Positions 2,360 to 49,034 of a stretch of 64,000 bases of DNA are shown piece by piece. The notes beneath the pieces were generated by a model. The model saw only the letters and a program-made list of their open reading frames with translations, ran no database searches and was not told the origin of the DNA. The number at the start of each line of letters is the position of its first letter. The first letter of the stretch is position 1. Origin of the DNA: Candidatus Eiseniibacteriota bacterium (lineage in GTDB: Bacteria > Eisenbacteria > RBG-16-71-46 > CAZAMP01); the NCBI GenBank assembly GCA_965224245.1, contig OZ245046.1, positions 3,808,001 through 3,872,000 of the forward strand, given 5' to 3'. A program made the position numbers and the translations under genes.

Positions 2360-3468
2360 GCCCCGAGCACGGCCTCGAGACGATCCACCGCTTCGGACCA
2401 GTCGTGAGAGGTGATGACGGCGGCGCGCGCGCGCCCCCCCATCGCGCGCCGGCGTTCGGGGCTCGCCACGAGGGAGGCGACGTGTGCCGCGAAAGCGGCC
2501 TCGTCGCCGGCCGGCGCGAGCAGGCCCGTGTCCCCGTGGCGGACCTGGTCCGCGAGCCCGCCGACGTCGAAGGCGACGACGGGCAGTCCCGAGGACATGG
2601 CCTCCAGCACGGCGTTGGGATAGTTGTCGAAGCTCGATGGGAGCACGAACACGTCGGCGGCGCGAAGGCGCCCCGCAACGTCGTCCGGGGAGAGGTGTCC
2701 GAAGAGCCGTACGCGCCCGGAGAGTCCCCGGCGGCGCACGTCCCGGGCGAGTCCCTCCCGAAGGGGACCGTCGCCGGCGACGTCCAGCCGGACGTCGTGA
2801 CCGCCGGCCAGGAGGCTCTCCAGCATCGGCAGCAGCCGGTGCACCGACTTGACGGGAACCAGTCGGCCCACGAAGACGAGGCGCGTCCGGCCCGACCGCG
2901 ACTCGCGTGCGGGATCGGGACGGAACCGCTCGGCGTCGACCCCCTTGCGCACCTCGACGACGTCGACCCCCAGGTGCTCGCGGATCGCGCGCACGTCGAA
3001 CCCGTCCGCGACGATCGCGTCCACCCCGCGGGCGGCCTCTTTCACGTCTCCGGGAGGCAATCCGCCCGAGCTCGCGACGACCACCCGGATACCCAGCCCG
3101 CGCTTGATGCGCCAGGCCAGGGGAAACAGGCCGAAGGTGAGCACGGCGTCGACGCCCGACCGGGCCCGCCCGGCACACGCATCGACCGCGCGGAACGCAG
3201 CGCGCTCGAAGAGTCGCTCGTCGAGGCGGACCAGGACACCTCGCCCCCGCGCCACGCGATACGACCAGTCGCGGAGATACGGTGCCTTCACCCCGACGCC
3301 CTCGATGCCGTCGGGAAAGGCGTACCGCGGCGGGCCCAGGAGGGGATGCGCGCAGACGAGCGTGATCGCGTGCCCGCGTGAGAGGAGCCCGTCCGCGAAC
3401 GCCAGCGTCCGGGTCTCGCCGCCGCCCCGCATCATCGCGAGGCTCTTGTTCACCACGATGATGTTCAT
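2344..3468 (-). CDS. Glycosyltransferase family 4
   Basis: GGGE near the N-terminus, FVGRLVPVKS, DVFVLPSSFDNYPNAVLEAMSSGLPVVA. Confidence 0.92.
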   Translation of the reverse strand: MNIIVVNKSLAMMRGGGETRTLAFADGLLSRGHAITLVCAHPLLGPPRYAFPDGIEGVGVKAPYLRDWSYRVARGRGVLVRLDERLFERAAFRAVDACAGRARSGVDAVLTFGLFPLAWRIKRGLGIRVVVASSGGLPPGDVKEAARGVDAIVADGFDVRAIREHLGVDVVEVRKGVDAERFRPDPARESRSGRTRLVFVGRLVPVKSVHRLLPMLESLLAGGHDVRLDVAGDGPLREGLARDVRRRGLSGRVRLFGHLSPDDVAGRLRAADVFVLPSSFDNYPNAVLEAMSSGLPVVAFDVGGLADQVRHGDTGLLAPAGDEAAFAAHVASLVASPERRRAMGGRARAAVITSHDWSEAVDRLEAVLGAQAAA

Positions 3469-3477
3469 GGGGGCGCC

Positions 3478-4827
3478 TCAGGCAGCCTGACTCGTCACGA
3501 GCGATCGGACGGCGCGGTGCTTGTCGCCGATCTCGGCGGCCGCGCGCCGCGTCTCCCGCCACGAGAAGCGGATCCCGGGGAAGCGTTCGGTCACCAGCGC
3601 CCGCACGCGGGCCAGCTCGCCCGGATCCATCCGGCCGTCCGGAATGACGAAGGTGACCTCGATCCGATCCGGATCGGTCTGGACGACCGTGAACCGATCC
3701 ACCGAGCGCAGATCGCGGAAGTAGATGTGCCAGACGTGCGAGAAGACGCGGCGCCCGTCGGGCAGGACGAACACGTCGTTGACGCGCCCGTGCACCGCGC
3801 GCAGCCGGGGAAACGGCCCGTGTGCGATCGGGTCCAGCTCCGCGAGGTCGCCGATCTCGTAGCGGATCAGCGGCATCGCGCGGTTCAGGAGGTCGGTCAC
3901 GAGCAGCCGTCCGGGCTCGCCCTCGCGCGAGGGCAGGATCTCGAGATGGTAGTAGTCGCTGAACGCGGTCAAGGACGTCTCGCCGGCGGCGTTGACGGCG
4001 ATCATGGGCGCCTCGGACGCGCCGTAGAGGTTGTGCACCGGACACCCGAACGCCTCGGTCAGGAGCGCCCGCTCGGCATCGCCGAGGTACTCGGCCGAGC
4101 ACACGACGCGCTGGGGCCGGATGCGATCGTCTCCGGCGCGAACGACGTGACGGGCCAGCGCCACCAGCGCGCTCACGTATCCGCGGACGATGTGTGGGTC
4201 GAAGCGGGCCACCTCGGTGGCCACGGCGGCCAGCGCCGCGTTCCCCATCGCGCTCTCGACCGGCCTGGTGACCTCGGTCACCGGAATCCACTGAAGGAGT
4301 CCCCGTGCGATGCGGCGCCGGTCGGCCGCGCCGTGCGACTCGTAACGTCGCCAGAGACGGGTCGTCCGTTTCCAGCCGGCGTGCCCGATCCACCGCTCGC
4401 CACGCGCCAGGAGTGCCCGGCGCCGCCACAGGCACCTTCGATCCTCGGCGAACCGGAGCGGGGTCCCGGTCGATCCGGTCGTCGTGCCGATCACGAGCTC
4501 GCGCGGCGCGAACGCGCGGGACAGCGCTCTCCCGTCGGCCAGGGCCTCCCGGAGCTCGTCCTTGGCCAGCGGTGGCAGGTAGGCGAGATCGGTGAGATCG
4601 CGGATGTCGTCGGGTCGCATCGCGGCCGCGAGCATGCGCTCGCGGTGGAGCGGCACCGTCTCGAACGCGTGCGCACAGAGCGCGCGAAGCCGCGCGATCT
4701 GGTACTCGCGCATGCGCTCGAGATCCCAGCGCTCGCGCGCGCGGGCGGCGAGGCGGTCGACGTTCGCGCGCGGGTTCCTCCAGGACAGCACCGGCGAGCC
4801 GATGCGAATGAGCGGAGTCACGTTCAT
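3478..4827 (-). CDS. Phenylacetate-CoA ligase-like (CapK-type) protein
   Basis: TTGSTGTP loop, YGASE, MPLIRYEIGD, GRVNDVF; start placed at the ATG overlapping the upstream stop codon. Confidence 0.88.
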   Translation of the reverse strand: MNVTPLIRIGSPVLSWRNPRANVDRLAARARERWDLERMREYQIARLRALCAHAFETVPLHRERMLAAAMRPDDIRDLTDLAYLPPLAKDELREALADGRALSRAFAPRELVIGTTTGSTGTPLRFAEDRRCLWRRRALLARGERWIGHAGWKRTTRLWRRYESHGAADRRRIARGLLQWIPVTEVTRPVESAMGNAALAAVATEVARFDPHIVRGYVSALVALARHVVRAGDDRIRPQRVVCSAEYLGDAERALLTEAFGCPVHNLYGASEAPMIAVNAAGETSLTAFSDYYHLEILPSREGEPGRLLVTDLLNRAMPLIRYEIGDLAELDPIAHGPFPRLRAVHGRVNDVFVLPDGRRVFSHVWHIYFRDLRSVDRFTVVQTDPDRIEVTFVIPDGRMDPGELARVRALVTERFPGIRFSWRETRRAAAEIGDKHRAVRSLVTSQAA

Positions 4828-5720
4828 GCCGCCACCCCGCGCGGCTGCGCGCCGGTCGAGGGGCCGCCGGTCGCGGCGGTCACCGGCTCGACGACCCCGG
4901 TGGCGGGGTCCCGTCGCCAGCGCCGCTCGCCGTTCGCCGGCGAGCGTTCGAGCTCGATTCGGGCATCGAGCCACTCGCGCACCTCTCGCTTGATCGCGCG
5001 CCATGGAGCCCTGGCCGGAGCCGGGATCGACGCCGTCAGACGGCGGCGAATCGACGTCATCGCCCCGGCCGGGCGTCCGAGATCACCGCGGGAGACGTCG
5101 GCCGCGGCCAGACGCACGACGACACCGCCCCGCCGGAGGCCGTCCGGACTCGGCTCGTCGACCTCGACCACCGATCGTCCGACCTCGTGGGGCGCGTGCG
5201 CGTCGCTGCCGGCGATCAGCGGAACGCGGGGCAGGTCCGGGAGACGGACCCGGAGACGGTCGAGCTCGGCGGGATCGCTCTTGGCGTTCGAGAGCTCGAT
5301 CAGGTCGATTGCGCTCAGCGCCGCCTCGACCTCGCGCGGGCCGTGGCGGTGCTCGTCCTCGGCGTTGGCCAGGAGACCGGTGTCCCGCCGGTACGGATGC
5401 GGGAGCGCGACCAGCCCCCCCAGGTCGTGGATCTCGTCGATGACATCGAGCAGCGACCGCGAACGAGGCGGCCGCGAGATCCACAGTCCGATGACGTGAG
5501 TCCGGCGATCGGTCGTGACCTCGATCCCGGGGACGATCTCCAGCGCCGCGCGTACCCGATCCACCTCGCGACGCACGGGGTCCACACCGGCCATCGTGTC
5601 GTGGTCGGTGATCGCCAGCGCCGCCAGGCCCCGGCCTACCGCCCAGGAGACGATGCGCCCCACGCGGGCGCTCGAGTCCGGCGAGAATCGCGTGTGGCAG
5701 TGGCCGTCGATGCGAAACAT
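4824..5720 (-). CDS. PHP-domain metal-dependent phosphoesterase
   Basis: DGHCHTRFSPDS, AITDHD, PGIEVTT, HPYR, GSDAH. Confidence 0.88.
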   Translation of the reverse strand: MFRIDGHCHTRFSPDSSARVGRIVSWAVGRGLAALAITDHDTMAGVDPVRREVDRVRAALEIVPGIEVTTDRRTHVIGLWISRPPRSRSLLDVIDEIHDLGGLVALPHPYRRDTGLLANAEDEHRHGPREVEAALSAIDLIELSNAKSDPAELDRLRVRLPDLPRVPLIAGSDAHAPHEVGRSVVEVDEPSPDGLRRGGVVVRLAAADVSRGDLGRPAGAMTSIRRRLTASIPAPARAPWRAIKREVREWLDARIELERSPANGERRWRRDPATGVVEPVTAATGGPSTGAQPRGVAA

Positions 5721-5924
5721 CCGGAACTCCTCGGTCGCGCTCGCGTTCCCCCGTCGAACGGCACGTCGGCTCGTGGGCGCGCGGCGTCCATTCTCAATCG
5801 GCTGCTCGCGCCCCTTCTGAAGTGGGCGGGCGCCGGCGCGGGACGACAAAAGCATCAAGGACGCCCATGGCGCTCCGACAATTGGGCCGAGGACGAACGC
5901 CGTCCCGGGGCCTCCGGGGCGCGG

Positions 5925-5953
5925 TTGTCGGGTCGCGAGGTCTCGGCTAGACT
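5925..5953 (+). promoter_or_regulatory. Putative sigma70 promoter for the radical SAM and GT4 genes
   Basis: TTGTCG-17 bp-TAGACT. Confidence 0.5.
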
Positions 5954-6117
5954 CGCACCTCGCCCGTCGTCATACCGGCAGGAGCATCATCGGCGGAGCG
6001 ACGCGCGGCGGTCGACGAGGCGTCGCGACCACTCACTCGAACCCCGACGCGGCGGATACGTGCAGGTCCATCGACCCGCACGACGTCGTTGGGTCGGGAG
6101 CAAACGAGAACGCATCC

Positions 6118-7251
6118 ATGGATCTGTCGGTCATCCTGACCTATCGGTGCGATTCCAGGTGTTCGATGTGCTACATCTGGAAGAATCCCACGCACCCCGA
6201 TGCCGAGGTCTCGCTGGAGACGCTCTCGAAGCTGCCGAGCGGCTTCGACTACCTGAACGTGACCGGCGGCGAGCCCACGCTCCGCAAGGATCTGATGGAC
6301 GTCGTCGACCTCCTGTATCCCAAGACGATGACGCTGGAGATCAGCTCCAACGGGCTGCACGCCGATCGTCTGGTTCCGATCGTCGAGAAGTACCCGAACG
6401 TCAAGGTCCGCATCAGCGTGGAAGGCTTCGAGGGCACCAACGATCGGATCCGGGGCGAGAAGGGCGGCTTCGAGAAGAAGATCGACACGATGAACCGGCT
6501 CATCGACGCCGGCGGCACCGACCTCGGGTTCGCGACCACGTTCCAGGACGAGAACGTCGACGAGATCGTGGACATGTACCGGCTCACGAAGAAGCTGAAC
6601 ATCGAGTTCGCGACCTCGGCGCTCCACAACGGCTTTCAGTTTCACAAGAACGACAACTACCAGTACGACCGCATGGCGGTGGCCAGACGCGTGGAGGACC
6701 TGATCACCGAGATGTTGAAGTCGAGCTCGGTGAAGTCGTGGTTCCGCGGCTACCTGAACATGGGGCTGATCGAGAAGATCCTCGGCCACGACCGGCTCAT
6801 GCCGTGCACCGCCGGGACCGACTTCATCTTCGTGGACCCGTGGAGCGACGTGTACGCGTGCAACGTCCGGCCGGATCTCCTGATGGGCAACCTCCGGGAG
6901 CAGGAGTGGACGGACATCCTGCACGGCCGCACCGCCTCCGAGCAGCGCGAGAAGGTGGCGGCGTGCGAGCAGAACTGCTGGATGGTGGCCTCGGCGAAGA
7001 CCGCGATGCGACATCCGAAGTACGCGAGGATCCCGAAGTGGGGACCGCTGGCCTGGGTGCTTCGAAACAAGATCCGGGCGACGCTGGGGATTCCGATCCC
7101 GTTTCACCGTTACATCGACTACGCCCACGTGAAGACGGACGACCCCGTGGTGAAGCGCATCAGCTTTCTCGACCGAAACGAGAAGCGGCAGGTCCAGCCG
7201 AAGGAGAGCCGTCGCTACGGGCAGTTCGGCGCCGGCTTCTTCAATCGATGA
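6118..7251 (+). CDS. Radical SAM protein with SPASM/twitch-like C-terminal cysteines
   Basis: CDSRCSMC, TGGEP, ISSNG, PCTAG...VYACN...CEQNCWM. Confidence 0.92.
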   Translation: MDLSVILTYRCDSRCSMCYIWKNPTHPDAEVSLETLSKLPSGFDYLNVTGGEPTLRKDLMDVVDLLYPKTMTLEISSNGLHADRLVPIVEKYPNVKVRISVEGFEGTNDRIRGEKGGFEKKIDTMNRLIDAGGTDLGFATTFQDENVDEIVDMYRLTKKLNIEFATSALHNGFQFHKNDNYQYDRMAVARRVEDLITEMLKSSSVKSWFRGYLNMGLIEKILGHDRLMPCTAGTDFIFVDPWSDVYACNVRPDLLMGNLREQEWTDILHGRTASEQREKVAACEQNCWMVASAKTAMRHPKYARIPKWGPLAWVLRNKIRATLGIPIPFHRYIDYAHVKTDDPVVKRISFLDRNEKRQVQPKESRRYGQFGAGFFNR

Positions 7252-8387
7252 GAGTGGCCGTTCTCGGCATCAAGACGAAGCCGGCCTCGGCCGGCGCCGA
7301 TCGCGTGGTGGAGAAGCTCCTCGAGGCCACCGGCGAGCCCGGTGCGCCGCCCGACGCGCATCACTACACGATCTACCTGATGGCGCGTCGCGGACCGCGA
7401 CTCCCGGACACGCCCACGCGGCGCCACGTGTACCTGCCGGCGCTGCCGGGGAAGCACCTCGCGGCGTCCAGCTACTTTCTCCTCTGCGCGCTGCACGCGA
7501 CGCTGATCGGCCGATACGACGTCCTGCACGTGCACAACTCGGACTTCGGCCTCTTCTGCCCGCTGCTGCGGCTGTGCCCCGGTCGGCGGATCGTGGGCAC
7601 GTTTCACGGGGATCCGTACCGGCGGGCCAAGTGGGGGCCGCTCGCTCGTCACATCCTCCACTGGAGCGAGCGGCTGTTCGTGGAGTGCGGCGACGTGCTG
7701 ACCTCGGTGTCCCGGCTCAAGGCCAGAGGCTCGGGAATCTGGCGGGAGAAGCCCGTCCGTTACATCCCGAACGGCGTCGACGACGACTGCGGCTTCGACC
7801 TCTCGGATGCATTCGACCACGCGGCTCACGGCACGCGCCCTCGGGGCTACCTCCTGTTCGCGTGCGGCCGGCTCGACCCGACCAAGGGGCTCCATCACCT
7901 GCTGGATGCGCACGCGCGCCTCGCCGGCGCGCCGCCGCTGGTCGTCGTGGGGGACTTCACCCACGACCGGGCCTACTCGGCCATGATCCGCACGCGGTGC
8001 GACACCGACGATCGCATCGTCCTCGTGGAGAGGCTCTTGCCGCGTGAGCAGCTGATCTCGATCGTGCGCGACTGCCTGGCGTTCGTGTTCCCGTCCGAGG
8101 TCGAGGCGATGTCGATGATGCTCCTGGAGGCGGTCTCCTGCCGCCGACCCGTCGTCTGCTCGGACATCCCCGAGAACCTCGCCGTCGTGGGCGAGGACTA
8201 CGCGTTCGCGTATCCGGTGACCGACCCCGGGGCGCTGGCCGAGCGCCTCGGGGCCGTGCTGGCCATGCCGGCCGTCGAGCAAGACACCGTCACGTCCGAG
8301 CTGTTCGATCGATGCATGGCGGAGTTCAGCTGGCCGCGGCTCCGCCGGGCTTACGGCGACGCGTACGAGACGGCGCTGGCCGCCTGA
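7248..8387 (+). CDS. Glycosyltransferase family 4
   Basis: ATGA overlap with the rSAM stop; MRVAVLG, YIPNGV, GRLDPTKG, FVFPSEVEAMSMMLLEA, SDIPEN. Confidence 0.9.
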   Translation: MRVAVLGIKTKPASAGADRVVEKLLEATGEPGAPPDAHHYTIYLMARRGPRLPDTPTRRHVYLPALPGKHLAASSYFLLCALHATLIGRYDVLHVHNSDFGLFCPLLRLCPGRRIVGTFHGDPYRRAKWGPLARHILHWSERLFVECGDVLTSVSRLKARGSGIWREKPVRYIPNGVDDDCGFDLSDAFDHAAHGTRPRGYLLFACGRLDPTKGLHHLLDAHARLAGAPPLVVVGDFTHDRAYSAMIRTRCDTDDRIVLVERLLPREQLISIVRDCLAFVFPSEVEAMSMMLLEAVSCRRPVVCSDIPENLAVVGEDYAFAYPVTDPGALAERLGAVLAMPAVEQDTVTSELFDRCMAEFSWPRLRRAYGDAYETALAA

Positions 8388-8401
8388 CGCCGCGCGAAGG
8401 A

Positions 8402-9289
8402 TCACTCGATCACGCGCTCCAGGACGTCGGAGATCCCGACACGCCCGGCTGCCGAGAGGCCGCCGGGCGGACCCAGCACGCCGACGCCGAGGCCCGACGC
8501 ACCGTCGACCGCGATCAGGATCGCCGCGCGCTCGCAGCCGCGCCGGCGGAGGTACTCCCGGACGCGCTCGAGGTAGAACGCGGTGGCCGACAGCTCGGAT
8601 GCGCGCGCCCCCCCGCCGAACCTCGCGTGCGCGAGATGGGGCGGCGTCGGCTCGGTGTGTCGCGCCCACACGAGGCGCCGCTCGTCGGCGGGCCGCTCCA
8701 GAATCCGGACCGTCTCCAGACCGACCCACGAGGCGTCCCCTTCGGTGAGGTACGACGTGACGTCGGGGACGTCGTCGTGCACGCCGTCCACGAACGCCGG
8801 AACGGCGCCCGCGGGATCCACGGGCGTCGAGGAGATCAGATCGCACCGCCAGCGTGGCCTGAGCGCTCCGGCATCGCCGTCTGCCGACCGGTCGCGCACC
8901 GTCTCGACCAGCGTCGCGAGGAGATCGGCGGCGGTGCACGGGCCTCCGTCGTCCCGCACGACCTCGACCGTGAGCGGTGCGGCGTTCCACTCGGGGGACG
9001 CTTCCAGCTCCTCGAGCGTCGTCCCCTGGACCTCCCAGACGACGATCGGGCACGGCCGCCCGGGCGTGACCGTGTCGAGGATTCGCTCGATCTCGAAGCG
9101 GTTGCGGCGAAACTCGTGCTCGCGCAACGTCAGGTAGCGCTCGCGGGCGAGCCGGTCGCCCAGCCCCAGCCGCACGCCCGCGATCACGAGAACGAACAGC
9201 GCGGCGGCGATCCACGACGCGCGCCGGCCCCGGCGATCCGCCGCGAGCGTCGCGTCGACCGCGACGTCCTCGCCCGGCGTGTCGACCAC
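8402..9289 (-). CDS. Hypothetical protein with an N-terminal membrane anchor
   Basis: Hydrophobic WIAAALFVLVIAGV segment; 10 nt downstream of the DUF6754 module; GC-rich third codon positions. Confidence 0.55.
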   Translation of the reverse strand: MVDTPGEDVAVDATLAADRRGRRASWIAAALFVLVIAGVRLGLGDRLARERYLTLREHEFRRNRFEIERILDTVTPGRPCPIVVWEVQGTTLEELEASPEWNAAPLTVEVVRDDGGPCTAADLLATLVETVRDRSADGDAGALRPRWRCDLISSTPVDPAGAVPAFVDGVHDDVPDVTSYLTEGDASWVGLETVRILERPADERRLVWARHTEPTPPHLAHARFGGGARASELSATAFYLERVREYLRRRGCERAAILIAVDGASGLGVGVLGPPGGLSAAGRVGISDVLERVIE

Positions 9290-9299
9290 GGCGAGTGCC

Positions 9300-10004
9300 T
9301 CAGAACGGCCCGGAGAGGGGGTTCCGGATCACGTTGATGAGATCGCCCATGCGTCCCGTCAAGAGCGAGATGCGGGCCATCACGGTGTAGCCGAACGAGG
9401 CGCCGAACGTGATCATCAGCACCCAGATCCCGATCCGGCTGGCGCCGCCGAGAGCCCCCTTGTGCGGGGCCGAGAAGAAGAAGTAGACGAGTCCCGTCAC
9501 CGTCCCCACGCAGACCACGATCGCGGTGAGGACGGGCATCAACGACATCGAGGTCGTCTGCACGAGCTCGACGGTGTTGTCGATCTGGGCCAGGAAGTCA
9601 GACTGGAGGAACCGGGTGAGGTTGGTCCCCGCGGCCCAGCCCACGATGAACGCCATCGCCCACCGCGACAGCCAGGCCAGCGGGTGGACGAGGCGCATCA
9701 GCATCAGAACGCCGAGGAGCGCGGCCAGCCAGTAGACCGGCTCCGACTCCGCCCCCGCCTCCAGGCCGACTCCCATGTCGGCGAACGTGCGCGCGGTCCA
9801 CTCCGGCGCCAGCTTCCCGAACAGGTTCGGGACCAGCGTGTTCCAGAATCCGAGCACCATCCAGTACGCGGCCGAGACCCCCACGAACAGGTGCTCGGCG
9901 AACTTGTAGAACGGATTGTCCCTGTACAGGAAGCTGAAGATCATCAGCGTCATCGCCGCCGCGGTCCAGGCCACGATGCGGTCGGCCCAGATTGCATCAG
10001 CCAT
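9300..10004 (-). CDS. Uncharacterised polytopic membrane protein (DUF6754 module, subunit D)
   Basis: About 6 TM segments; FSFLYRDNPFYKFAEHLFVG and LMITFGASFG. Confidence 0.85.
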   Translation of the reverse strand: MADAIWADRIVAWTAAAMTLMIFSFLYRDNPFYKFAEHLFVGVSAAYWMVLGFWNTLVPNLFGKLAPEWTARTFADMGVGLEAGAESEPVYWLAALLGVLMLMRLVHPLAWLSRWAMAFIVGWAAGTNLTRFLQSDFLAQIDNTVELVQTTSMSLMPVLTAIVVCVGTVTGLVYFFFSAPHKGALGGASRIGIWVLMITFGASFGYTVMARISLLTGRMGDLINVIRNPLSGPF

Positions 10005-10878
10005 GTCGCCGCTCCCGTCGCTTCGCCGCGATCATCGAGATGTTGCCGATCAGCACGAACAGCAGGATGACGATGTGCGCGATCGTCTGAGGACCCATCT
10101 TGGCCGTGGCCGCACTGACCTGGTCCCGGTCGAAGTCGGCCAGACGCCCGTACTCGCCGAGGAGCGCGGTCTCGTACTCCGCAGCTCCCTGGAGTCCTCC
10201 CATCAGACCGACGAGCTGGCTCGGGTAGTACGGGTAGAGCAGCGGCGCCTCGACGGCGGTCACGCCCCCGCCCACCGGCACGTTCGCCTGGTCGCCGCCG
10301 AACTGGACCCACTCCTTGAGCCCCGGCTTGCCCGATCCGATGCCCAGGATGAAGTCGAGATCACCGAGCCTGGTCAGGTCGCGCGTGATCGCGAACTCCG
10401 AGAGCGGGCGTCCCTCCCGGATGTCGGCGGTGAAGAACCCGAAGTCCGTCACCAGGGAGTTGATCACGCCCTGGTTCCCGACCTTATACCCGAGGTTGAT
10501 CCAGTCGACGCCGTACCGCTTGTCGGGATGCGTGGCCAGCTCGCCCAGGAAGACGCTCTCGATCGTGTCGTCGATCTGCGGAGGGCCCGTTGCCCACAGC
10601 GTCATCATGATCACGCGGATGCCCTTCTCCATGCAGTGCCGGACCAGCGCATCGGCCATCGGCTGGTTCTCGGGCACGGTGCCGGGACCGAAATCGAAGG
10701 AGATCAGGACGCGATCTCCTGCCTCGAGGTCCGACACCGCGTCGTACAGCCTCTGCACGATCGGCGTGGTCGGCATCTCGGCGCGCATCCCCAGCCACAC
10801 CGGGATGAACACCGACAGTCCGATGAAGAGAAAGATCCAGCGGCGATCGAGCTTTCCGAGGCGATCCAGCCACTGCAT
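9997..10878 (-). CDS. Uncharacterised membrane-anchored alpha/beta protein (DUF6754 module, subunit C)
   Basis: DRRWIFL N-terminal TM, DWINLGY, YPYY...GLQGAAEYE, C-terminal TM; start 1 nt after the upstream stop. Confidence 0.85.
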   Translation of the reverse strand: MQWLDRLGKLDRRWIFLFIGLSVFIPVWLGMRAEMPTTPIVQRLYDAVSDLEAGDRVLISFDFGPGTVPENQPMADALVRHCMEKGIRVIMMTLWATGPPQIDDTIESVFLGELATHPDKRYGVDWINLGYKVGNQGVINSLVTDFGFFTADIREGRPLSEFAITRDLTRLGDLDFILGIGSGKPGLKEWVQFGGDQANVPVGGGVTAVEAPLLYPYYPSQLVGLMGGLQGAAEYETALLGEYGRLADFDRDQVSAATAKMGPQTIAHIVILLFVLIGNISMIAAKRRERRHG

Positions 10879-10879
10879 G

Positions 10880-11560
10880 TCAGTCCTGCCCCAGGTACGA
10901 GCGCTCGAGCCCGAGTATGAGCTTGAGCGACGTCGAGATGATGCCGAGCGCGATCCCCATCTGGATGGCACGCTGGCCGGCCGTGTTGAACGCGGACATG
11001 ATGAACGCGGACAGGTTCGGGATCTCGAGCATGCTGAGCGAATCGGGCAGCCACGAGGTCAGGTAGTAGCCGACCGGCGTGCGTCCGATCAGGATCACGA
11101 ACGCGGCCCCCAGGAGCAGCGACGACTCCACGGTGCGAGCCCGGAACGCGCGAAACGCCGCCGAGGCCACGAAGAACGCGAGCAACGAGAACATCGTCGC
11201 GCCCAGCGGGTAGAACGTCGCCTCGTAGAGCCGATCGAAGAGACCGCCCGAGGCGTCGAACGCCTGACCCGGCTCCACTCCGATCCGGAACAGGCCGACG
11301 ATCAGCATCAACGAGAAGCCGAACAGCGTGACGATGCTGTAGAGCGCGTCGGGGTGCCGGCGCTGCACCTTCATCAGGTGCGCGCGCAGCAGGTTGCCGC
11401 CACCCAGGACGAACGCGAACGTGGCGATGATGTTGAAGAAGTCGCTGAGCTTGCTGTCGAGCTCGTTGAAGGGCTGTCGAGGAACGAAGTGCGCGATGAT
11501 CATGATGACGCCGGTCGCAAAGGCGATCATCAGGGGAACGTTGAGCTTCAACGCGCGCAT
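10880..11560 (-). CDS. Uncharacterised polytopic membrane protein (DUF6754 module, subunit B)
   Basis: 5-6 TM segments; PLGATMFSLLAFFVASAAFRAFRART, RAIQMGIALG, ILGLERSY. Confidence 0.85.
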   Translation of the reverse strand: MRALKLNVPLMIAFATGVIMIIAHFVPRQPFNELDSKLSDFFNIIATFAFVLGGGNLLRAHLMKVQRRHPDALYSIVTLFGFSLMLIVGLFRIGVEPGQAFDASGGLFDRLYEATFYPLGATMFSLLAFFVASAAFRAFRARTVESSLLLGAAFVILIGRTPVGYYLTSWLPDSLSMLEIPNLSAFIMSAFNTAGQRAIQMGIALGIISTSLKLILGLERSYLGQD

Positions 11561-11569
11561 GGCATCGCC

Positions 11570-12766
11570 CTAGTTGACCTTGAACAGCCAGTGAACGCCG
11601 GCGCTCACCGGCTCGATCCGGAACAGGACCGCCAGCACGCCCACCACGATCGCCGTCATGGCGACCAGCTTCCCGATGTCCTGGCCACGAAGACTTCCGA
11701 TCGTCTGCTGGTCTCCGGACAGGTAGGCGCTGGCGGCGAAGAGCTCCTCGCCGATCAGCGTGTAGTCGCAGGCGGCCACGAAGAACGGCAGCTGCGTCGG
11801 CATCGCCGTACCCGCGACCTGGATGGCGCCGATGGAGTTGCCGGTCTCGGCGAGCACGAGCGACTCGGCGAAGAAGGCACCGAGGTAGAAGCACGCGGCC
11901 GGCTTCTGGCGGACCATGATCCCGTCCACGGCCGCCACGTAGCCGAACTGCTCGTCGGTGACGTAGTGCACCATGTCCTCGTTGTAGAGGTCGGGGCGGC
12001 CCGCGGCGAGATAGGCCTCGCGCACCGACTCCCGTCCGGTGGACATGACCAGCGAGCGTGCGACCGGAACGTCGAGCGTGGTCTCGTACTGGGCGACCTT
12101 CGATGCGATCTGCGACAGGATGTTGAGCCCCGCGAGCGTCTGCACGTCGTCGAGATCGTTGATGCCGGGAATGAACAGCACCGCACGACCCATCTCGGTG
12201 GCCCGGCCGACCGCCTCGTCGATCGCCTCCAGCCCCGCGATCTTGCGAATGTAGAGCTGGCGTCCCCGCGCCGCCCAGGCCGTGAAGAAGCCGATCGCGC
12301 CCACCAGGATGGTCAGGATGATGAGCTGGTTGGTGCGTGTCGTGTTGAACCAGTTGGGTCTCGCGGTGATCGCGGTGCTCGGCGTCGAGCGAGCGCTGAT
12401 CGGTCCCGAGAAGAGCTCGACCACGTAGCGAACCGGGCCCTCGCCCGCGGCGGCGTCGTCGTATTCGCTCGCCGGTCCGATGAGCGTGGTCGCCAGCTCG
12501 GTGCCCGCGCCGGTCATGCGAAACACCTGCACACTGTCGACCGAGGCCGGATCAGGCAGCGTCCAGCTCACCCGGAGCGCGCCGCCGGCGTCTCCGGGAC
12601 GATCGACGGCGGTGACGTCGCTGGCGGCGCCGATCGACGTGGACGGGGTCTCGACGAAACGGGGAGGAGGAGCGTCCTGGGCACGAGCCGTCAGGACGGC
12701 CACACACGCGCCCGCGCACGCGACCAGGGTGACGCGCCGGACGGTATCGGAGAAGAGGGCTGTCAC
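11570..12766 (-). CDS. DUF6754-like protein with signal peptide and FN3-like N-terminal domain (module subunit A)
   Basis: Signal peptide ending ARA-Q; DRPGDAGGALRVSW; IRKIAGLEAIDEAVGRATEMG; QLPFFVAACDYTLIGEELFAASAYL; the GTG start is an estimate. Confidence 0.85.
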   Translation of the reverse strand: MTALFSDTVRRVTLVACAGACVAVLTARAQDAPPPRFVETPSTSIGAASDVTAVDRPGDAGGALRVSWTLPDPASVDSVQVFRMTGAGTELATTLIGPASEYDDAAAGEGPVRYVVELFSGPISARSTPSTAITARPNWFNTTRTNQLIILTILVGAIGFFTAWAARGRQLYIRKIAGLEAIDEAVGRATEMGRAVLFIPGINDLDDVQTLAGLNILSQIASKVAQYETTLDVPVARSLVMSTGRESVREAYLAAGRPDLYNEDMVHYVTDEQFGYVAAVDGIMVRQKPAACFYLGAFFAESLVLAETGNSIGAIQVAGTAMPTQLPFFVAACDYTLIGEELFAASAYLSGDQQTIGSLRGQDIGKLVAMTAIVVGVLAVLFRIEPVSAGVHWLFKVN

Positions 12767-12821: not shown

Positions 12822-14903
12822 CTAGGGGCGAGCGTTCCCGGCTTCCCGTGACCGGATGAACGCACGAGCCCCCTCCGCGTCGGGATCGTCGGGCGCCAGC
12901 TCGACGAACGCGCGAAGATGCGAGAGCGCCTCGGACATGCGCGCCGCGTCACGCGCCAGGAGGTTGCCGAGGTTGAGTCGGGTGAGCGCGTCCCGGGGAT
13001 CCACCTCCACCGCATGGTCGAGCAGCGCCTCGGCCTCGGCCGCCTCTCCGCGGTTCATCAGGAGGACCGCCAGCGCGTTGAGCGACTGCACCGCGTCGGG
13101 CGCGATCGCCAGCGAGTGCCGAAGCGCCTCCTCCGCGCGCGTCACGTCGCCGCGACGCGTGTACACCAGCGCCCTCAGCTGAAACAGCGCGCTGGAGCGG
13201 GGCGCGAAGTCGAACGCGTCTTGGATCACGGCCAGGGCGTCGTCGTCGCGTCCGTCGGCCACGGCGCGCTGCGCGGCGGCCCGACCGAGCTCCCCGTAGA
13301 GCCGGCGCACGATGGGAACCAGCGTGAACGGTCTCCGGTCGCGGCGCAGGAGCTGGTGCCCGGGGAGTCGGAACCGATAGGCGTCCCACCGCACCGGCGC
13401 CGGCTCGTCGGCGCCCCCGGTATCGGGAACCAGGCGGAACGTCAGCCCCTCGCGCCGGTACGTCAGTCCGTGACCGGCGGTCACCGGCGGGTCGTACTGG
13501 ATCGTGCAGAACGCGCGCCCCCGGAGCTCGGCCGGAGGATCGGCGGCCAGCCGCAGGATGTGGCGCCAGCGCTCGGTTCGCCAGTCTCCGGTGAGCTCGC
13601 GGAAGCCCAGGGTCTGGCGACGCACCTTTCCGGTCATGTCGACGATCGCCACGTCGTCGCGCTCGCCGAGGACGTCTCGATGGAAGACGAACGGCCCCAC
13701 CAGCGTCTCGGTGAGAAGGAACAGGGCGCCGCCCTCGGGTACGTCCCGCAGCACGTTGTGAACGAAGTCGTCCACGATGTGATCGCGCCGGCGCGAGCAC
13801 TCGGGCCGGTTCGCGACGGCCGCGGTCACCACGCACGCGAGGCCGAGCACGGTCGCGATCGCCCGCCGGCGCTCACCGAACACGGGATCGGCGAGCGCCG
13901 ACGCGCCCAGCGCTACCGCGAGCCACGTCGGCATCAAGAGGTAGTTCTCGACGTCGTGAATGGCGTACACGCTCGCGAACCCGAGAATCAACGGGATCGG
14001 CAGCGCGAGGAGCAGGAGTCGCTCCCGATCGCGTCGCCACGACAGCACGAGCCCGGCCATCGCGAGCAGCATCACCAGGAGCGTCAGCGGTCCGACGTCG
14101 GTGCGGGCGATCGACCCGATCAGCTCCCAGGTCGAGCGGACTCCGGCGCCGCCCTCGCTCAGGAGCTCGCTCCGGCTGGCGATGCCGAGCGCGTGATAGA
14201 AGAAGTCCCCCACCCCGCCGATCTGCGCGTAGTCCACCGCGGGCCGCGCGGCGCTCCGGATGGGCAGCAGCGCGAACGCGGTGAACGGAAGCACGAACGC
14301 TCCGATCGACCCCATCACGAGGCGCGGGTGCACCGTCCGCGCGAGCAAGCGGCGGGACACGAGAGCCACCACCCCGGGCAACAGCCACACCATCAACGGC
14401 TGATGCGAGACGGCCAGCCCTCCCACGTACGCCCCGATCACGAGCAAGCGCGGCGCGCCCGTGCGGCGCCAGCGGTCGACGAGGGACAGCGCCGCGAGTC
14501 CCAGGAAGAGCCCCATGGTGTAGACCTCGGCCACGAGTGCCTGCGACCACGTGCCGATCGAGAGGCCCGCCGCGATCGACCAGAGCCCCGCCGCGACCGC
14601 GCTCGAACCGAGCCCGGACAGGAGCAGTGCGAAGGACCCGCCGGCCAGCGCACCCGCGAGCGCCGAGACGAACGTGACCCGGGCCGCCGCCCCCCCCACG
14701 GGCACGAGCGACGCGACCCGGCCGATCAGCGTGTAGGTCGGGTAGCCCGGCTGGTGCGGGATGCCGACGGTGTGGGCCGCGGTGATCAGCTCGGGCGTGT
14801 CACCGCCCACGAGGCCGGGCGCGAGCGTGATCGCGTACGCGGCGAGCAGCACGGCGCTCGCGAGGAGCGCCGCACCGATCGCAGGTGAGGGGCGGGTCGT
14901 CAC
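12822..14903 (-). CDS. DUF2723/TMEM260-like GT-C membrane glycosyltransferase with C-terminal TPRs
   Basis: GDTPELITAAHTVGIPHQPGYPTY, AEVY, multiple TMs, C-terminal TPR-like helices. Confidence 0.85.
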   Translation of the reverse strand: MTTRPSPAIGAALLASAVLLAAYAITLAPGLVGGDTPELITAAHTVGIPHQPGYPTYTLIGRVASLVPVGGAAARVTFVSALAGALAGGSFALLLSGLGSSAVAAGLWSIAAGLSIGTWSQALVAEVYTMGLFLGLAALSLVDRWRRTGAPRLLVIGAYVGGLAVSHQPLMVWLLPGVVALVSRRLLARTVHPRLVMGSIGAFVLPFTAFALLPIRSAARPAVDYAQIGGVGDFFYHALGIASRSELLSEGGAGVRSTWELIGSIARTDVGPLTLLVMLLAMAGLVLSWRRDRERLLLLALPIPLILGFASVYAIHDVENYLLMPTWLAVALGASALADPVFGERRRAIATVLGLACVVTAAVANRPECSRRRDHIVDDFVHNVLRDVPEGGALFLLTETLVGPFVFHRDVLGERDDVAIVDMTGKVRRQTLGFRELTGDWRTERWRHILRLAADPPAELRGRAFCTIQYDPPVTAGHGLTYRREGLTFRLVPDTGGADEPAPVRWDAYRFRLPGHQLLRRDRRPFTLVPIVRRLYGELGRAAAQRAVADGRDDDALAVIQDAFDFAPRSSALFQLRALVYTRRGDVTRAEEALRHSLAIAPDAVQSLNALAVLLMNRGEAAEAEALLDHAVEVDPRDALTRLNLGNLLARDAARMSEALSHLRAFVELAPDDPDAEGARAFIRSREAGNARP

Positions 14904-15500: not shown

Positions 15501-16286
15501 TCAATGGATCACCCGTCCGGCGCAGTCCTGTCCGTCGTCGAACGCGGCACGCGCTGGAGCCGGCACCGCCGCGCACGCGGGACAGTCGGGCCGGCGCTCG
15601 ATCGGGATGCGCGTGATCGCGAACCGATCGGTGTCGACGTGCACGAGCGTGCCCCACGGAACCGTCCCCCGGCCAGCCAGAATGCGAATGACCGAGAGCG
15701 CGGCCAGGTGGCCGACGATGGCCGAGACCGCGGCCAGCACCGGGAAGTCGGCCCGCCAGGGCGGCGGCTCGGGGGTCAGGCAGCGAAGACACGCGCTCCG
15801 GCCCGGACGCACACACACGAGATGGGCCTCGTCGGCATACATGGCCGCGTCGACGAACGGCTTCCCGGCAGCCAGGGCGGCGTCGTTCAGCGTCAGGCGC
15901 TCCTCGTACGTCGGCGCCGCGCCGATCGCGACGTCGTGCGTGGCCATCAGCTCTCTCGCTTCGGCCGGCGTGATGCGCCCATCCACGCCGCGCACGTCGA
16001 TGTCGCGCCCGTAGCGGCGCAACGCAGCCTCGGCCTGGGGAGCCCTCGGCCGTCCCACCCCGTCGGGGTCCATCAGGATCATTCGGTGCAGATCCTCGTC
16101 GAGGAGATCGCCCTCGTGATAGAACGTGATCCGTCCGACTCCGGCCACCGCGAGGCTCTGCGTCAGAGGGCCGCCCAGCCCTCCCACGCGCGCGATCAGA
16201 ACCGAGCTCGCCTGCAGGCGGGCCTGCTCGGCCTCACCGAGCCAGTCGAGGAGCTTCTGACGCCGGTATCGATCCGGTTGCGTCAT
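15501..16286 (-). CDS. HesA/MoeB/ThiF-family E1-like adenylyltransferase
   Basis: RYRRQ, VGGLGG, LAVAGVG, CLRC...CPAC zinc motifs. Confidence 0.9.
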   Translation of the reverse strand: MTQPDRYRRQKLLDWLGEAEQARLQASSVLIARVGGLGGPLTQSLAVAGVGRITFYHEGDLLDEDLHRMILMDPDGVGRPRAPQAEAALRRYGRDIDVRGVDGRITPAEARELMATHDVAIGAAPTYEERLTLNDAALAAGKPFVDAAMYADEAHLVCVRPGRSACLRCLTPEPPPWRADFPVLAAVSAIVGHLAALSVIRILAGRGTVPWGTLVHVDTDRFAITRIPIERRPDCPACAAVPAPARAAFDDGQDCAGRVIH

Positions 16287-16288
16287 GA

Positions 16289-16564
16289 TCACCCTCCCGC
16301 CACCGGCAGCATCAGCCGGATGGTCGTGGTCCCGTTCACCGGGACGTCGCGATCGTGACACACGACGCCGTCCACGACGACCAGCACGCTCGGGTGCAGT
16401 CGCCCCTCGCGCATGATGTGGCCGGATCGATCGCGCGGAAGCCGCGCGATCAAGGCCGCCAGCGCCTCGTTCACGGTGATGCCGCCATCGACGTCGACGT
16501 CGACGTCGATGGCGGCCGCGCCGAGCATGTCGGCCAGCCAGGGCGTCATTTCGAATCGAACCAT
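16289..16564 (-). CDS. MoaD/ThiS-family ubiquitin-like sulfur carrier
   Basis: 91 aa ending PVAGG; adjacent to the E1-like gene. Confidence 0.88.
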   Translation of the reverse strand: MVRFEMTPWLADMLGAAAIDVDVDVDGGITVNEALAALIARLPRDRSGHIMREGRLHPSVLVVVDGVVCHDRDVPVNGTTTIRLMLPVAGG

Positions 16565-16595
16565 GTCGGCTCACCTCCCCATTGCGGATCGCGGA

Positions 16596-17258
16596 TCATG
16601 TTGCGGTCACGATACGGCCCTCGACGATTCGGGTCACCGCGTCTGCGCGCTCGGCGGCCTCCTGGGCATCGTGCGTGATCTGCACGATGGCCGCTCCGCG
16701 CTCGTCGCGCCAGCGGGAAACCACGTCACCCACGAGGCGGCGCGTGTCGGCGTCCAGCGCGGACGTGCACTCGTCCAGAAGCAGCACGTCCACGTCGGTC
16801 ACGAGGGCCCGCGCCAGCGCGACGCGTTGCGCCTCCCCTCCCGAGATGCTCGTGATGGACCGCGACTCGAGGTGCGCAATCCCCAGCGCGTCCATCGCGC
16901 GGTCCAGCCGGGCGTCCAGGTCGGGACCGGCACCGCGGGCGCGGGCGCCGAACGCCACGTTGCGGCGGACCGAGAGGTGCGGAAACAGAAGATCGTCCTG
17001 CGGCACGTAGCCGAGGCGTCGCCCCTCGGGGGGAACGTCGGCCAGACTCCGGCCGTCGCGGCGAATGTCGCCCTCGGTGGGGCTCAGGAACCCCGCGGCC
17101 ATCTCGAGCAGCAGCGTCTTGCCCGCTCCGGTCGGGCCGACCAGGGCCCGCCACTCCCCCGCGCGCACGTCGATGGATACGTTCACGACCTTGAACGCGC
17201 CGAGATCCAGCGACACCGACTCCCAGCTCAGGCGTGGCGTGCCGTTCGGCGCGATCAT
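16596..17258 (-). CDS. modC: ABC transporter ATP-binding protein (molybdate/tungstate type)
   Basis: GPTGAGKT, ISGGEAQR, LLLDE; follows modB. Confidence 0.85.
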   Translation of the reverse strand: MIAPNGTPRLSWESVSLDLGAFKVVNVSIDVRAGEWRALVGPTGAGKTLLLEMAAGFLSPTEGDIRRDGRSLADVPPEGRRLGYVPQDDLLFPHLSVRRNVAFGARARGAGPDLDARLDRAMDALGIAHLESRSITSISGGEAQRVALARALVTDVDVLLLDECTSALDADTRRLVGDVVSRWRDERGAAIVQITHDAQEAAERADAVTRIVEGRIVTAT

Positions 17259-18055
17259 CCGAGCACCAGCTTCCCGCCGAGCCGCCGGATGCCCGAGAGG
17301 GCGATCGCGCCCAGGAGGACCAGGAGCACGCTCAGCGCCACACCGTTCTCGATCTCGCCGTTCGAGAACGACAGGAAGATGGCGATCGGCAGCACGTCGG
17401 TCTTTCCGCGGACGGCGCCCGCGAAGATCAGGATCGGGCCGAACTCGGCGATCGCGCGGGCCCACACGAGGATCGTGCCCGCGATGATCCCGTTCCGGGC
17501 CAGGGGCAGTGACACGCGCCAGAACGTCGCGGCCTCGCTCGCACCCAGCGAGCGCGACATCGTCTCCAGCCGGACGGGAACGTCCGCGAAGGTCGCGCGC
17601 AGGACCCGGACGGCCAGCGGCGCGGCGATGGTGAACTGCGCAAGCACGATCCCCGCTCGCGTGAACCGCAGATCGAGCCCCGCGGCGTCCAGCCGGCCCG
17701 TCCCCAGGACGCGTTCGAGAATGGCATAGGCCAGGAGCAGGCTGAAGCCGGCGACCAGCGGCGGGAGCACGATGGGCAGATCCAGGAGGACGTCGATGGC
17801 GCCCCGGAGCGGCACCCGATGCCGTGTCAGCGCGTAGGCCGCCGGGAGCGCGAGCAGCATGGCCAGTGACGTCGACAGCGAGCTCGTCCACACCGAGAGC
17901 CAGATCGAGCGTCGCGCGGCCTCGCTGGTCAAGAGATTCATCAGCCGCTCGGGCCCGGCGTAGAGGAAGTTCGCCAGCAGGAACGTCGCGACGAACGCCA
18001 CCAGCAGAACGAGCGCGCCGGCGAGAGTGAGCCGAAACCACGAGAGACGCTTCAC
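17255..18055 (-). CDS. modB: Molybdate/tungstate ABC transporter permease
   Basis: DLPIVLPPLVAG, EAA-like loop RSLGAS, WARAIAEFG. Confidence 0.88.
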   Translation of the reverse strand: MKRLSWFRLTLAGALVLLVAFVATFLLANFLYAGPERLMNLLTSEAARRSIWLSVWTSSLSTSLAMLLALPAAYALTRHRVPLRGAIDVLLDLPIVLPPLVAGFSLLLAYAILERVLGTGRLDAAGLDLRFTRAGIVLAQFTIAAPLAVRVLRATFADVPVRLETMSRSLGASEAATFWRVSLPLARNGIIAGTILVWARAIAEFGPILIFAGAVRGKTDVLPIAIFLSFSNGEIENGVALSVLLVLLGAIALSGIRRLGGKLVLG

Positions 18056-18879
18056 GGTGTCTCGGAGGCGAGCTGATCGGACTCCGCGCTCACCGGCTCG
18101 TACCCGTGGCGCCGGAAGATCGCCGCGCCGGCCTCGCTGGTCAGGAACTCCAGAAAGCGCCCGGCGGCCAGGGGCTCACGCGAGCATCCGAGGACGCCAC
18201 CGGTGATGATCGTCCGGAACGGGCGCCCGCTCGCGGGGGCAACCGCGTCGAGCGTTGGAAAGAGCTCGACCGTCACGTCCCAGACGATCGCGGCGTCCAG
18301 CGCGCCCAGCGCCAGCTGGCTCCCGAGCTCGTTGACGTTGATCGCGCGGGTCCGGACGTTCGCGTCGAGCCGCGCGCGGGTGGCCTCGTCCAGCTCGGAC
18401 TCGAGCCATCGCTCGCTCGCGACGCCGACCGCCACCGACGTCGGATCCCCGAGTCCCACCCGCACCCCGGGCTCGGCCAGATCGACGAGGTCGTGGATGT
18501 CGAGGGGATTGCCCGACGGCACGGCGATCACGGGCTGGAGATATGCGATGGAGACCGCGGCGTCGGCCAGTCCACGCTCGATCGCCTGATCGAGGTAGTG
18601 AACCTCGCCGGGAATGAAGACGTCGCCCTTGCCGGTCATCTCGGCCTGGGCGAGAAGGCAGCCGCTGCCGGCGAAGGTCACGTCCACGCGCACGCCCTCC
18701 TCGGCGGTGAACGCGGCCGCGGCCTCCTCGATGGGGAGCCGGAACCCGGCCCCGGCGAACACCATCATCTCGCACGCATCGTCACAGGCGTGGACGATCG
18801 GCGTGAGCGGCAGGGAGAGCGCCATGGTGACGACGGTGAACGGAAGCGCGCGACGGTCCTGCACGAGATGGGCGAGCAT
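18052..18879 (-). CDS. modA: Molybdate/tungstate ABC transporter substrate-binding protein
   Basis: FAGAG, FAGSG.LLAQ, DVFIPG, GNPLDI, DAAIVW, IFRRHGY. Confidence 0.85.
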   Translation of the reverse strand: MLAHLVQDRRALPFTVVTMALSLPLTPIVHACDDACEMMVFAGAGFRLPIEEAAAAFTAEEGVRVDVTFAGSGCLLAQAEMTGKGDVFIPGEVHYLDQAIERGLADAAVSIAYLQPVIAVPSGNPLDIHDLVDLAEPGVRVGLGDPTSVAVGVASERWLESELDEATRARLDANVRTRAINVNELGSQLALGALDAAIVWDVTVELFPTLDAVAPASGRPFRTIITGGVLGCSREPLAAGRFLEFLTSEAGAAIFRRHGYEPVSAESDQLASETP

Positions 18880-18962: not shown

Positions 18963-19007
18963 CGATCGATACCCCAGGATTATAGCGATACGATCTCATT
19001 CTGTCAG
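18963..19007 (-). promoter_or_regulatory. sigma70 promoter of the mod operon with an overlapping ModE-like dyad
   Basis: Minus strand CTGACA (19007-19002)-17 bp-TATAAT (18984-18979); CGATCGATA-N7-ATTATAGCG overlaps the -10 element. Confidence 0.6.
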
Positions 19008-48891: not shown

Positions 48892-49034
48892 GGCAACGGG
48901 CGGCCGGTGAGGATGGCATCACGGCGATCGGGCGCTCCGGGTTGGGGTCGCGGGTATCGTAGTGAGTCGCCTCTTCTTGCGCCACGCCGAATGGTGCGTT
49001 TACCCGTCTCCCCGGGGCGGCTATTCTGGCCTCG

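Follow-up and report, generated by a model that had tools for sequence, protein, structure and literature searches.

A four-gene DUF6754 membrane module that keeps its order across bacterial phyla and co-occurs with a GlmL/MutL-like ATPase

Introduction

Group II energy-coupling factor (ECF) transporters, and transporters sharing an ATP-binding cassette (ABC) ATPase of the MsiK type, combine a single cytoplasmic ATPase set per genome with several membrane units encoded at scattered sites, and in FtsEX and MacB (mechanotransmission) as well as in Tol-Pal, a cytoplasmic or membrane motor is combined with periplasmic binding domains. The present work concerns a module of four membrane-protein genes, A, B, C and D, located at positions 9300 to 12766 on the minus strand of a 64,000-nucleotide stretch of DNA, hereafter the window, from Candidatus Eiseniibacteriota bacterium (assembly GCA_965224245.1, contig OZ245046.1, positions 3,808,001 to 3,872,000). 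The four coupled genes evolve as one unit, and new here is the finding that this module co-occurs with one ATPase of the GlmL/MutL-like ASKHA (actin/Hsp70/sugar-kinase) type and a partner protein of 375 amino acids, P375.

The likeness to transporters with a shared energizer lies in the numbers, usually one MutL-like gene versus one to nine modules per genome, whereas there is no sequence relation and no ABC or ECF match, and the candidate ATPase, which would have to contact the module, is of the ASKHA type. With GlmL and MutL, the accessory proteins of glutamate mutase and of ornithine degradation, this ATPase shares PF13941 and the ASKHA motifs, but it is longer by about 150 amino acids and sits beside membrane genes instead of a mutase. 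Occasional Tol/Exb, tetratricopeptide repeat (TPR) and FtsZ neighbours recall FtsEX, MacB and Tol-Pal; homology is lacking, however, and this neighbourhood is not general. Rnf and Na+-NQR resemble the module in having two six-helix subunits of about 200–230 amino acids in opposite orientation and a transmembrane (TM)-anchored subunit with a periplasmic domain, and the N-terminus of the soluble partner P375 is like that of NqrA; yet no PF02508 match and no conserved cysteine or cofactor motif is present in A–D, and Rnf/Nqr genes occur in only 9 of 26 relatives, compared with DUF6754 in 38 of 41. The family DUF6754 (PF20539), a domain of unknown function, covers A only, and B, C and D are without any family.

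Conservation and distribution of the module

The window genome carries four complete modules in the same order, A-B-C-D. Compared with the window copy, its paralogues show identities of 52–54% for A, 36–45% for B, 30–36% for C and 39–45% for D. The order was identical in all 23 loci taken from the window genome and 20 genomes of its class. That the four genes belong together, as the first-pass annotation had supposed from the window copy, was borne out by a gene-neighbourhood survey of all loci, in which A was followed by B, C and D in 113 of the 114 DUF6754 copies with at least 3.3 kb of downstream sequence; 31 further copies of A lay too close to a contig end and were excluded from the order count. 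A script scored 112 of the 113, and the window copy, missed because of the 8-nt overlap between C and D, was added as the last. The sole exception (L081), in which A stands alone, is interrupted by a stretch of N.

When one genome per species was scanned, 583 relatives of A were obtained; the 79 best loci represent 14 named phyla, with 23 loci lacking a named phylum, so that the range of the module is at least 14 named phyla. At least 7996 proteins related to A are present in a large protein collection. Of the 41 genomes of the class, 38 contained DUF6754, as did 115 of the 125 in the phylum sample (including the unpublished genome G072), 16 of 61 Planctomycetota and 2 of 51 Acidobacteriota sampled, but none of 14 control genomes. 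The number of module copies per genome ranges from one to nine, and a WOR-3 genome of 2.3 Mb has six. Three modules in tandem, amounting to twelve genes, were found in Zixibacteria, Ignavibacteria and others, and in a FastTree phylogeny based on 144 DUF6754 domains, copies from array positions 1, 2 and 3 form old groups distinct from each other. A starred group of 55 rows contains the window copy along with position-2 copies and the copies that stand singly in Planctomycetota.

A linked ATPase set

Clustering of the flanking open reading frames of all loci identified a recurrent set on the same strand upstream of the module, usually in the order c4, c3, MutL-like gene, P375, A, B, C, D. The products are c4, a two-helix protein of about 150 amino acids; c3, of about 135 amino acids; a GlmL/MutL-like ASKHA ATPase of about 620 amino acids, which matches PF13941 at 412–430 bits; and P375, of about 375 amino acids, which belongs to no family. 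The MutL-like gene and/or P375 were present in 41 of 105 loci, and MutL–P375 fusions were encountered at two loci (L094 and L097). The window genome has exactly one such ATPase set, in the run c4-c3-MutL-P375-A-B-C-D at G000:C1:1479824-1486623, plus three further modules. This eight-gene cluster (L005, G000:C1:1475001-1495000, approximately 4800–11674) directly follows gcvT and gcvH.

The association extends to whole genomes. Within the class, DUF6754 and PF13941 are found together in 38 of 41 genomes, and the other three lack both, as well as C. Among the Planctomycetota, a strong MutL-like match was obtained in 14 of the 16 DUF6754-positive genomes versus none of the 45 negative ones, the latter giving one partial match of 102 bits and one match below the cut-off. 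In both DUF6754-positive Acidobacteriota genomes the ATPase gene adjoins the module, and in these as well as in Gimesia a single module lies beside the ATPase.

The MutL-like protein is well conserved across phyla, with 71% mean column identity in the alignment, and the phosphate-binding motifs of the ASKHA type are kept. Because the Pfam cut-off of PF13941 was passed and the NCBIfam equivalogs remained below theirs, with scores of 229–239 for GlmL (cut-off 475) and 211–219 for the ornithine-pathway form (cut-off 600), and with TIGR01319 likewise below cut-off, the protein is regarded as a relative and not as GlmL proper. A sequence search gave no solved relative of this ATPase. At its N-terminus, P375 is similar to the barrel-sandwich part of NqrA (hhalign, 79.6%, E 1.5e-5, 85 columns).

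Two further observations concern these families. A second relative of PF13941, scoring about 300–340 bits in open frames of 869–1046 amino acids, is a separate paralogue of the MutL-like ATPase in several genomes of the class (e.g., G001:C30, G006:C80, G013:C19 and G033:C10, and also G043:C68). In the Zixibacteria genome G045 (L133, 2409–9870, minus strand), a MutL-like gene, a 273-amino-acid gene without family and P375 are followed, with no change of strand, by genes for ExbB/TolQ, ExbD/TolR, a TonB_C protein and TolB.

Gene layout and protein A

In the window, gene A lies at 11570–12766 (minus strand, as are the other three) and encodes 398 amino acids from GTG 12766, or 431 from the alternative GTG 12865. 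It is followed by B at 10880–11560 (226 amino acids, six TM segments), C at 9997–10878 (293 amino acids; a TM segment, a periplasmic domain of about 230 residues, a second TM segment and a basic cytoplasmic tail) and D at 9300–10004 (234 amino acids, about six TM segments). Reading of the frames and junctions confirmed the four tightly spaced minus-strand genes of the first-pass annotation: the TAG stop of A is separated by 9 nt from the ATG of B, the TGA of B by 1 nt from the ATG of C, and the TGA of C and the ATG of D belong to an 8-nt overlap. The third-position G+C content of the four frames is 0.83–0.95, as expected of real genes in a window of approximately 70% G+C. Gene starts at high-G+C loci are approximate, and the start codon of A is uncertain. 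The GTG at 12766 opens a plausible signal peptide and has no Shine-Dalgarno sequence; the GTG at 12865 is preceded by GGAGGG, gives the 431-residue form that is an entry in a large protein collection, and implies a 44-nt overlap with the upstream gene.

The membership of A in DUF6754, stated in the first-pass annotation, proved correct: residues 136–385 (window 11612–12361) match PF20539 in Pfam at 397.1 bits against a cut-off of 27, spanning model positions 2–251 of 257, and the domain was also recovered by the whole-genome scan. This region comprises a TM anchor, a cytoplasmic part and an acidic-hydrophobic stretch at residues 289–352. The domain composition suggested earlier, i.e., signal, probable FN3-like domain, TM segment, putative alpha/beta domain and TM segment, is compatible with the features of the protein. 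The N-terminus is a hydrophobic, signal-like stretch; hydropathy averaged over alignments gives two clear TM anchors, at residues 146–166 and 366–386; and the periplasmic FN3-like domain (about residues 31–135, window 12362–12676) was recognized by its profile, which, built from A and 23 relatives, found titin FN3 domains in the PDB with E 5.8e-11 over profile positions 43–121. The Pfam family fn3 (PF00041) gave no match at E ≤ 1 on the window protein and is annotated on homologues of A. A lipobox-like LVAC occurs at residues 14–17, but the hydrophobic run ahead of it is too short, and a type I signal peptide is judged more probable than a lipoprotein.

Among 143 sequences, 56 columns of A are at least 97% identical. 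Residues 289–352 carry on average 0.84 lysine plus arginine and 6.4 aspartate plus glutamate residues, are not called transmembrane by hydropathy, and constitute the best-conserved piece of the whole module; among the four paralogues of the genome their identity is 0.72, compared with 0.26 and 0.34 for the TM anchors. The N-terminal periplasmic part, by contrast, varies in relatives, its versions including a single FN3 domain, several of them, a PQQ/BamB-like propeller and RHS repeats. Relatives in large collections are labelled “fibronectin type III domain-containing”, “DUF6754 domain-containing” or “hypothetical”.

Membrane topology and conservation of B, C and D

TM segments were counted from hydropathy averaged over alignments, and sidedness was assigned by the positive-inside rule from the lysine and arginine content of the loops. 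Two clear segments in A, six in B, two in C and about six in D agree with the counts first proposed for B, C and D (5–6, 2 and about 6). In B, which has no cysteine, the mean lysine-plus-arginine content of successive loops alternates (1.8, 0.6, 3.7, 1.1, 3.1, 0.8, 1.1), consistent with six helices and both termini inside. C has its N-terminus inside, its domain outside and its C-terminus inside, and D has its N-terminus outside with loops L3 and L5 inside. The conserved part of A is assigned to the cytoplasmic side because it is placed after an out-to-in anchor. The charge rule thus sides with the earlier placement of the soluble domain of A in the cytoplasm and that of C in the periplasm. 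Natural C–D fusion proteins (P0408, P0413 and P0456; 579–598 amino acids) each contain exactly one extra hydrophobic linker helix, which, independently of the charge rule, requires an outside N-terminus of D.

Across the four paralogues of the genome, the loops facing the cytoplasm are far better conserved than those facing the periplasm. In B the identical fractions are 0.28, 0.67 and 0.72 for the inner loops and 0.05, 0.15 and 0.31 for the outer ones; in D they are 0.74, 0.47 and 0.51 inside and 0.22 and 0.23 outside. L4 in B and L3 in D are basic loops, with about 3 lysine plus arginine and about 0 aspartate plus glutamate residues; the first cytoplasmic loop and the last helix of D are nearly invariant. 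No acidic residue is conserved within the helices of B or D. In the C-terminal helix of C, Gln 264, His 268 and Asn 279 are at least 97% conserved, and C as a whole is the most divergent subunit among the paralogues, which fits a role in specificity.

Relatives of these proteins add further variation. The periplasmic loop L3 of B holds inserts, one of them an FG-GAP propeller, and D has long N-terminal or loop inserts in some relatives. For C, 2136 relatives were found, all “hypothetical” and without a Pfam domain, and for D, 2754 representatives of clusters at 50% identity at E ≤ 1e-3. The Atlas clusters near the C homologue P0112 are unnamed and include Chloroflexota proteins of 468 and 876 amino acids in which Zn-ribbon domains are followed by a C-like part (TM-score by query 0.77–0.79); the fold of C thus occurs in other architectures as well.

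Comparison with known families and among the subunits

The earlier statement that the gene set is not known to have an assigned function stands after searches of Pfam, NCBIfam and the PDB, in which no named or solved relative was found except for the FN3 part of A. B, C and D gave no Pfam or NCBIfam match above noise, and searches of the PDB with profiles of all four proteins yielded, apart from the FN3 part of A, no credible match at E ≤ 10. Two subthreshold matches were discarded, Nucleos_tra2_N for B (E 0.0065, 17 bits versus a cut-off of 27) and Chloroa_b-bind for D (E 0.093). Motif patterns and Pfam concur with the first-pass annotation that A–D lack Walker, heme, Fe-S and kinase motifs: no Walker A, CxxCH or CxxC pattern is present, and no Pfam match of the ABC_tran type points to an ABC or other P-loop transporter. 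PADLOC defence models gave no matches for A–D, c4, c3, the MutL-like protein or P375 at E ≤ 0.01. In the literature library searched, no paper was found naming DUF6754 or PF20539, nor PF13941.

Kinship of A–D with Rnf/Nqr was rejected, since hhalign against NqrA–E gave at most 12%, compared with 100% for the control pair NqrD/NqrE; for B and D, the six-helix family PF02508 was not matched at E ≤ 1, and hhalign against NqrD and NqrE gave at most 1.4%. The same control, a true inverted pair, applies to the comparison among the subunits. BLASTP of A against C and of B against D found nothing, and hhalign returned 1.3% for A/C and 0.3% for B/D with 23–24 sequences, and 2.3% and 0.3% with 119–143 sequences. 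All six subunit pairs remained at or below 4.8% with small and large alignments, and no more than 7% was reached when the N-terminal halves of B and D were compared with the C-terminal ones, or the soluble and hydrophobic parts of A with the corresponding parts of C. The opposite orientation of B (N-terminus inside) and D (N-terminus outside) is real; the proposal that A/C and B/D are distant paralogues finds no support at the level of sequence.

Neighbouring genes

Upstream of A in the window, at 12822–14903 (minus strand), lies a gene for a GT-C-type membrane glycosyltransferase (TMEM260-like) with a C-terminal TPR part (PF11028 and TPR families); its stop codon lies 55 nt short of GTG 12766, and with GTG 12865 as the start of A it would lie 44 nt within that gene. 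The same neighbour was found only in the closest relatives (L024 and L040), and in another genome one GT-C–DUF6754 fusion protein (P0253) occurs. Downstream, the TGA of D is followed after 10 nt by the GTG of a fifth gene, at 8402–9289 (minus strand), for a 295-amino-acid protein without family, whose homologue (39% identity) follows D only in the same two loci. Between 8000 and 19200 the sole promoter-like site, an 11/12 match, is at 19007–18979, so the transcript of the module may be long. No riboswitch or other RNA leader reached the gathering score in eight loci (145 kb).

The intervening genes on the same strand (15501–18879) encode ThiS/MoaD-like and ThiF/MoeB-like proteins, a solute-binding protein and an ABC ATPase. 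The ThiS-like gene contains a perfect-looking palindrome at 16483–16514, on both strands of which unrelated Rfam hairpin families match far below threshold; these were the only RNA-family matches in window positions 1–25000. A radical SAM/SPASM gene at 6118–7251 (plus strand), beside GT4 glycosyltransferase genes, has lower first- and second-position G+C than its neighbours, and this stretch has the second-lowest G+C of the window (0.658). A second GT-C-type membrane glycosyltransferase (PMT_2) is encoded at 47236–48918 (minus strand). In another module locus of the window genome (L006, G000:C1:1288001-1308000, 2814–11891), the module follows murC, ftsZ and a gene for a 571-amino-acid TPR protein; too little space is left between murC and ftsZ to accommodate ftsA, and the only FtsA-domain match in the genome is weak (45 bits) and lies far away.

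Discussion

The reading we favour, tentatively and at a little less than an even chance, is that A–D are four subunits of one inner-membrane complex that is energy-coupled through a shared ATPase module. The hetero-oligomeric membrane assembly proposed in the first-pass annotation fits the invariant gene order, the gene coupling and the C–D fusions. Such a complex would be one of several paralogous membrane units per cell, its membrane body formed by B and D in their opposite orientations, with C and the N-terminus of A placing variable domains in the periplasm. The conserved cytoplasmic face would be made up of the arginine-rich inner loops in B and D together with the DUF6754 region of A, including the acidic-hydrophobic stretch. 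This face may dock the single-copy module of MutL-like ATPase, P375 and the two small proteins that is encoded beside another module copy. ATP turnover would then be passed via A–D either to a substrate crossing the inner membrane or to envelope work done by the periplasmic domains, and several membrane units would share one motor. Physical assembly, contact with the ATPase module, energy coupling and action are a best guess that we infer from these data. We lean towards envelope work, given that the periplasmic domains are of the binding type and that envelope genes are scattered among the neighbours (GT-C/TPR, FtsZ/TPR, OmpH, Tol/Exb). It is possible, though on the whole unlikely, that A–D, the GlmL-like ASKHA ATPase, P375 and the two small proteins represent a novel type of membrane machine driven by ATP, which would be the first to rely on an ATPase of the actin/Hsp70 fold, and not on an ABC, P-type or AAA+ enzyme, for powering transport or force transmission across the bacterial inner membrane, with one motor, up to nine interchangeable units and targets set by the periplasmic domains.

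Several observations weigh against a shared ATPase. Two Planctomycetota genomes (G187 and G190, genome completeness not given) have DUF6754 but no MutL-like match, no ATPase gene is found near the window's own module, and in WOR-3 and Zixibacteria genomes with six modules each the single MutL-like gene lies 33–80 kb from the nearest module. The genomes behind the counts are related and not independent. Moreover, glycine-cleavage genes stand beside MutL/P375 in 11 loci, including a WOR-3 locus without an adjoining module, and the ATPase set could therefore serve metabolism and share only an ancestry of gene order with the module. This neighbourhood, seen in 11 of the 41 loci with MutL/P375 (Fermentibacteria and WOR-3 among them) versus none of the 64 others, is mainly what keeps alive a metabolic or ion-coupling reading, according to which a H+- or Na+-translocating complex would use the acidic residues of A and the polar last helix of C as an ion path, maybe coupled to MutL-like/P375 and perhaps to glycine cleavage, like the sodium-pumping decarboxylases. 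The properties of residues 289–352 of A (hydrophobic, about six acidic and less than one basic residue, best conserved), the nearly invariant Gln 264, His 268 and Asn 279 of C and the NqrA-like N-terminus of P375 would suit such a pump, but the stretch in A is not transmembrane by hydropathy, the helices of B and D carry no conserved acidic residue, A–D show neither hhalign kinship with NqrA–E nor an Rnf-Nqr Pfam match, and up to nine copies, each with variable periplasmic binding domains, would be unusual for a bioenergetic pump; we consider it improbable. The first-pass annotation had envisaged a self-contained, ATP-independent transporter or signalling complex in which A/C and B/D are distant paralogue pairs in opposite orientation. 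The lack of nucleotide-binding, heme, Fe-S and kinase motifs in A–D, the placement of the soluble parts of A and C on opposite sides, the orientation of B and D as an inverted pair and the window copy without a nearby ATPase gene speak for this proposal. Nevertheless, it is distinctly unlikely, given the profile likeness of 0.3–2.3% for A/C and B/D against 100% for NqrD/NqrE. Independence from ATP is doubtful because the presence of the module tracks the MutL-like ATPase, whose gene is directly upstream of one module in many genomes, and nothing points specifically to signalling.

A scaffold or force-transmitting assembly of the envelope, FtsEX- or Tol-Pal-like and without passage of a substrate, in which the periplasmic domains keep in place or switch on partners in the cell wall or outer membrane while cells grow and divide, would account for the binding-type nature of the periplasmic additions (FN3, PQQ/BamB-like and FG-GAP propellers, RHS repeats). 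It would also suit the GT-C/TPR neighbour in the window, FtsZ and the TPR protein in L006, OmpH in L007, genes of the ExbB/TolQ type in 10 of 105 loci and the TolQ-TolR-TonB_C-TolB run after MutL and P375 in Zixibacteria. These neighbourhoods differ between lineages, however, and none is general; Tol/Exb genes are common in such genomes, and the strongest conservation is cytoplasmic, which would be explained only if the ATPase module drives the assembly, whereupon it merges with the energy-coupled complex favoured above. As an alternative to that complex, we regard it as unlikely. That the four genes are neighbours by descent only, their products acting separately, could be argued from the fact that physical assembly of A–D is deduced from genes; retention of the order in 113 of 114 copies and at least 14 phyla through repeated duplication of the whole set, coupled start and stop codons, and the C–D fusions make this highly improbable.

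The module is under strong constraint and widely spread, yet three of its four proteins are without family and none has a solved relative detectable by sequence. If the link to the ATPase is real, it would represent an energizing principle not known for bacterial membrane complexes. Even without that link, the module stands for a major gap in the cell biology known for Gemmatimonadota, Zixibacteria, Ignavibacteria, Planctomycetota and many candidate phyla, all of them important in soil, sediment and water.

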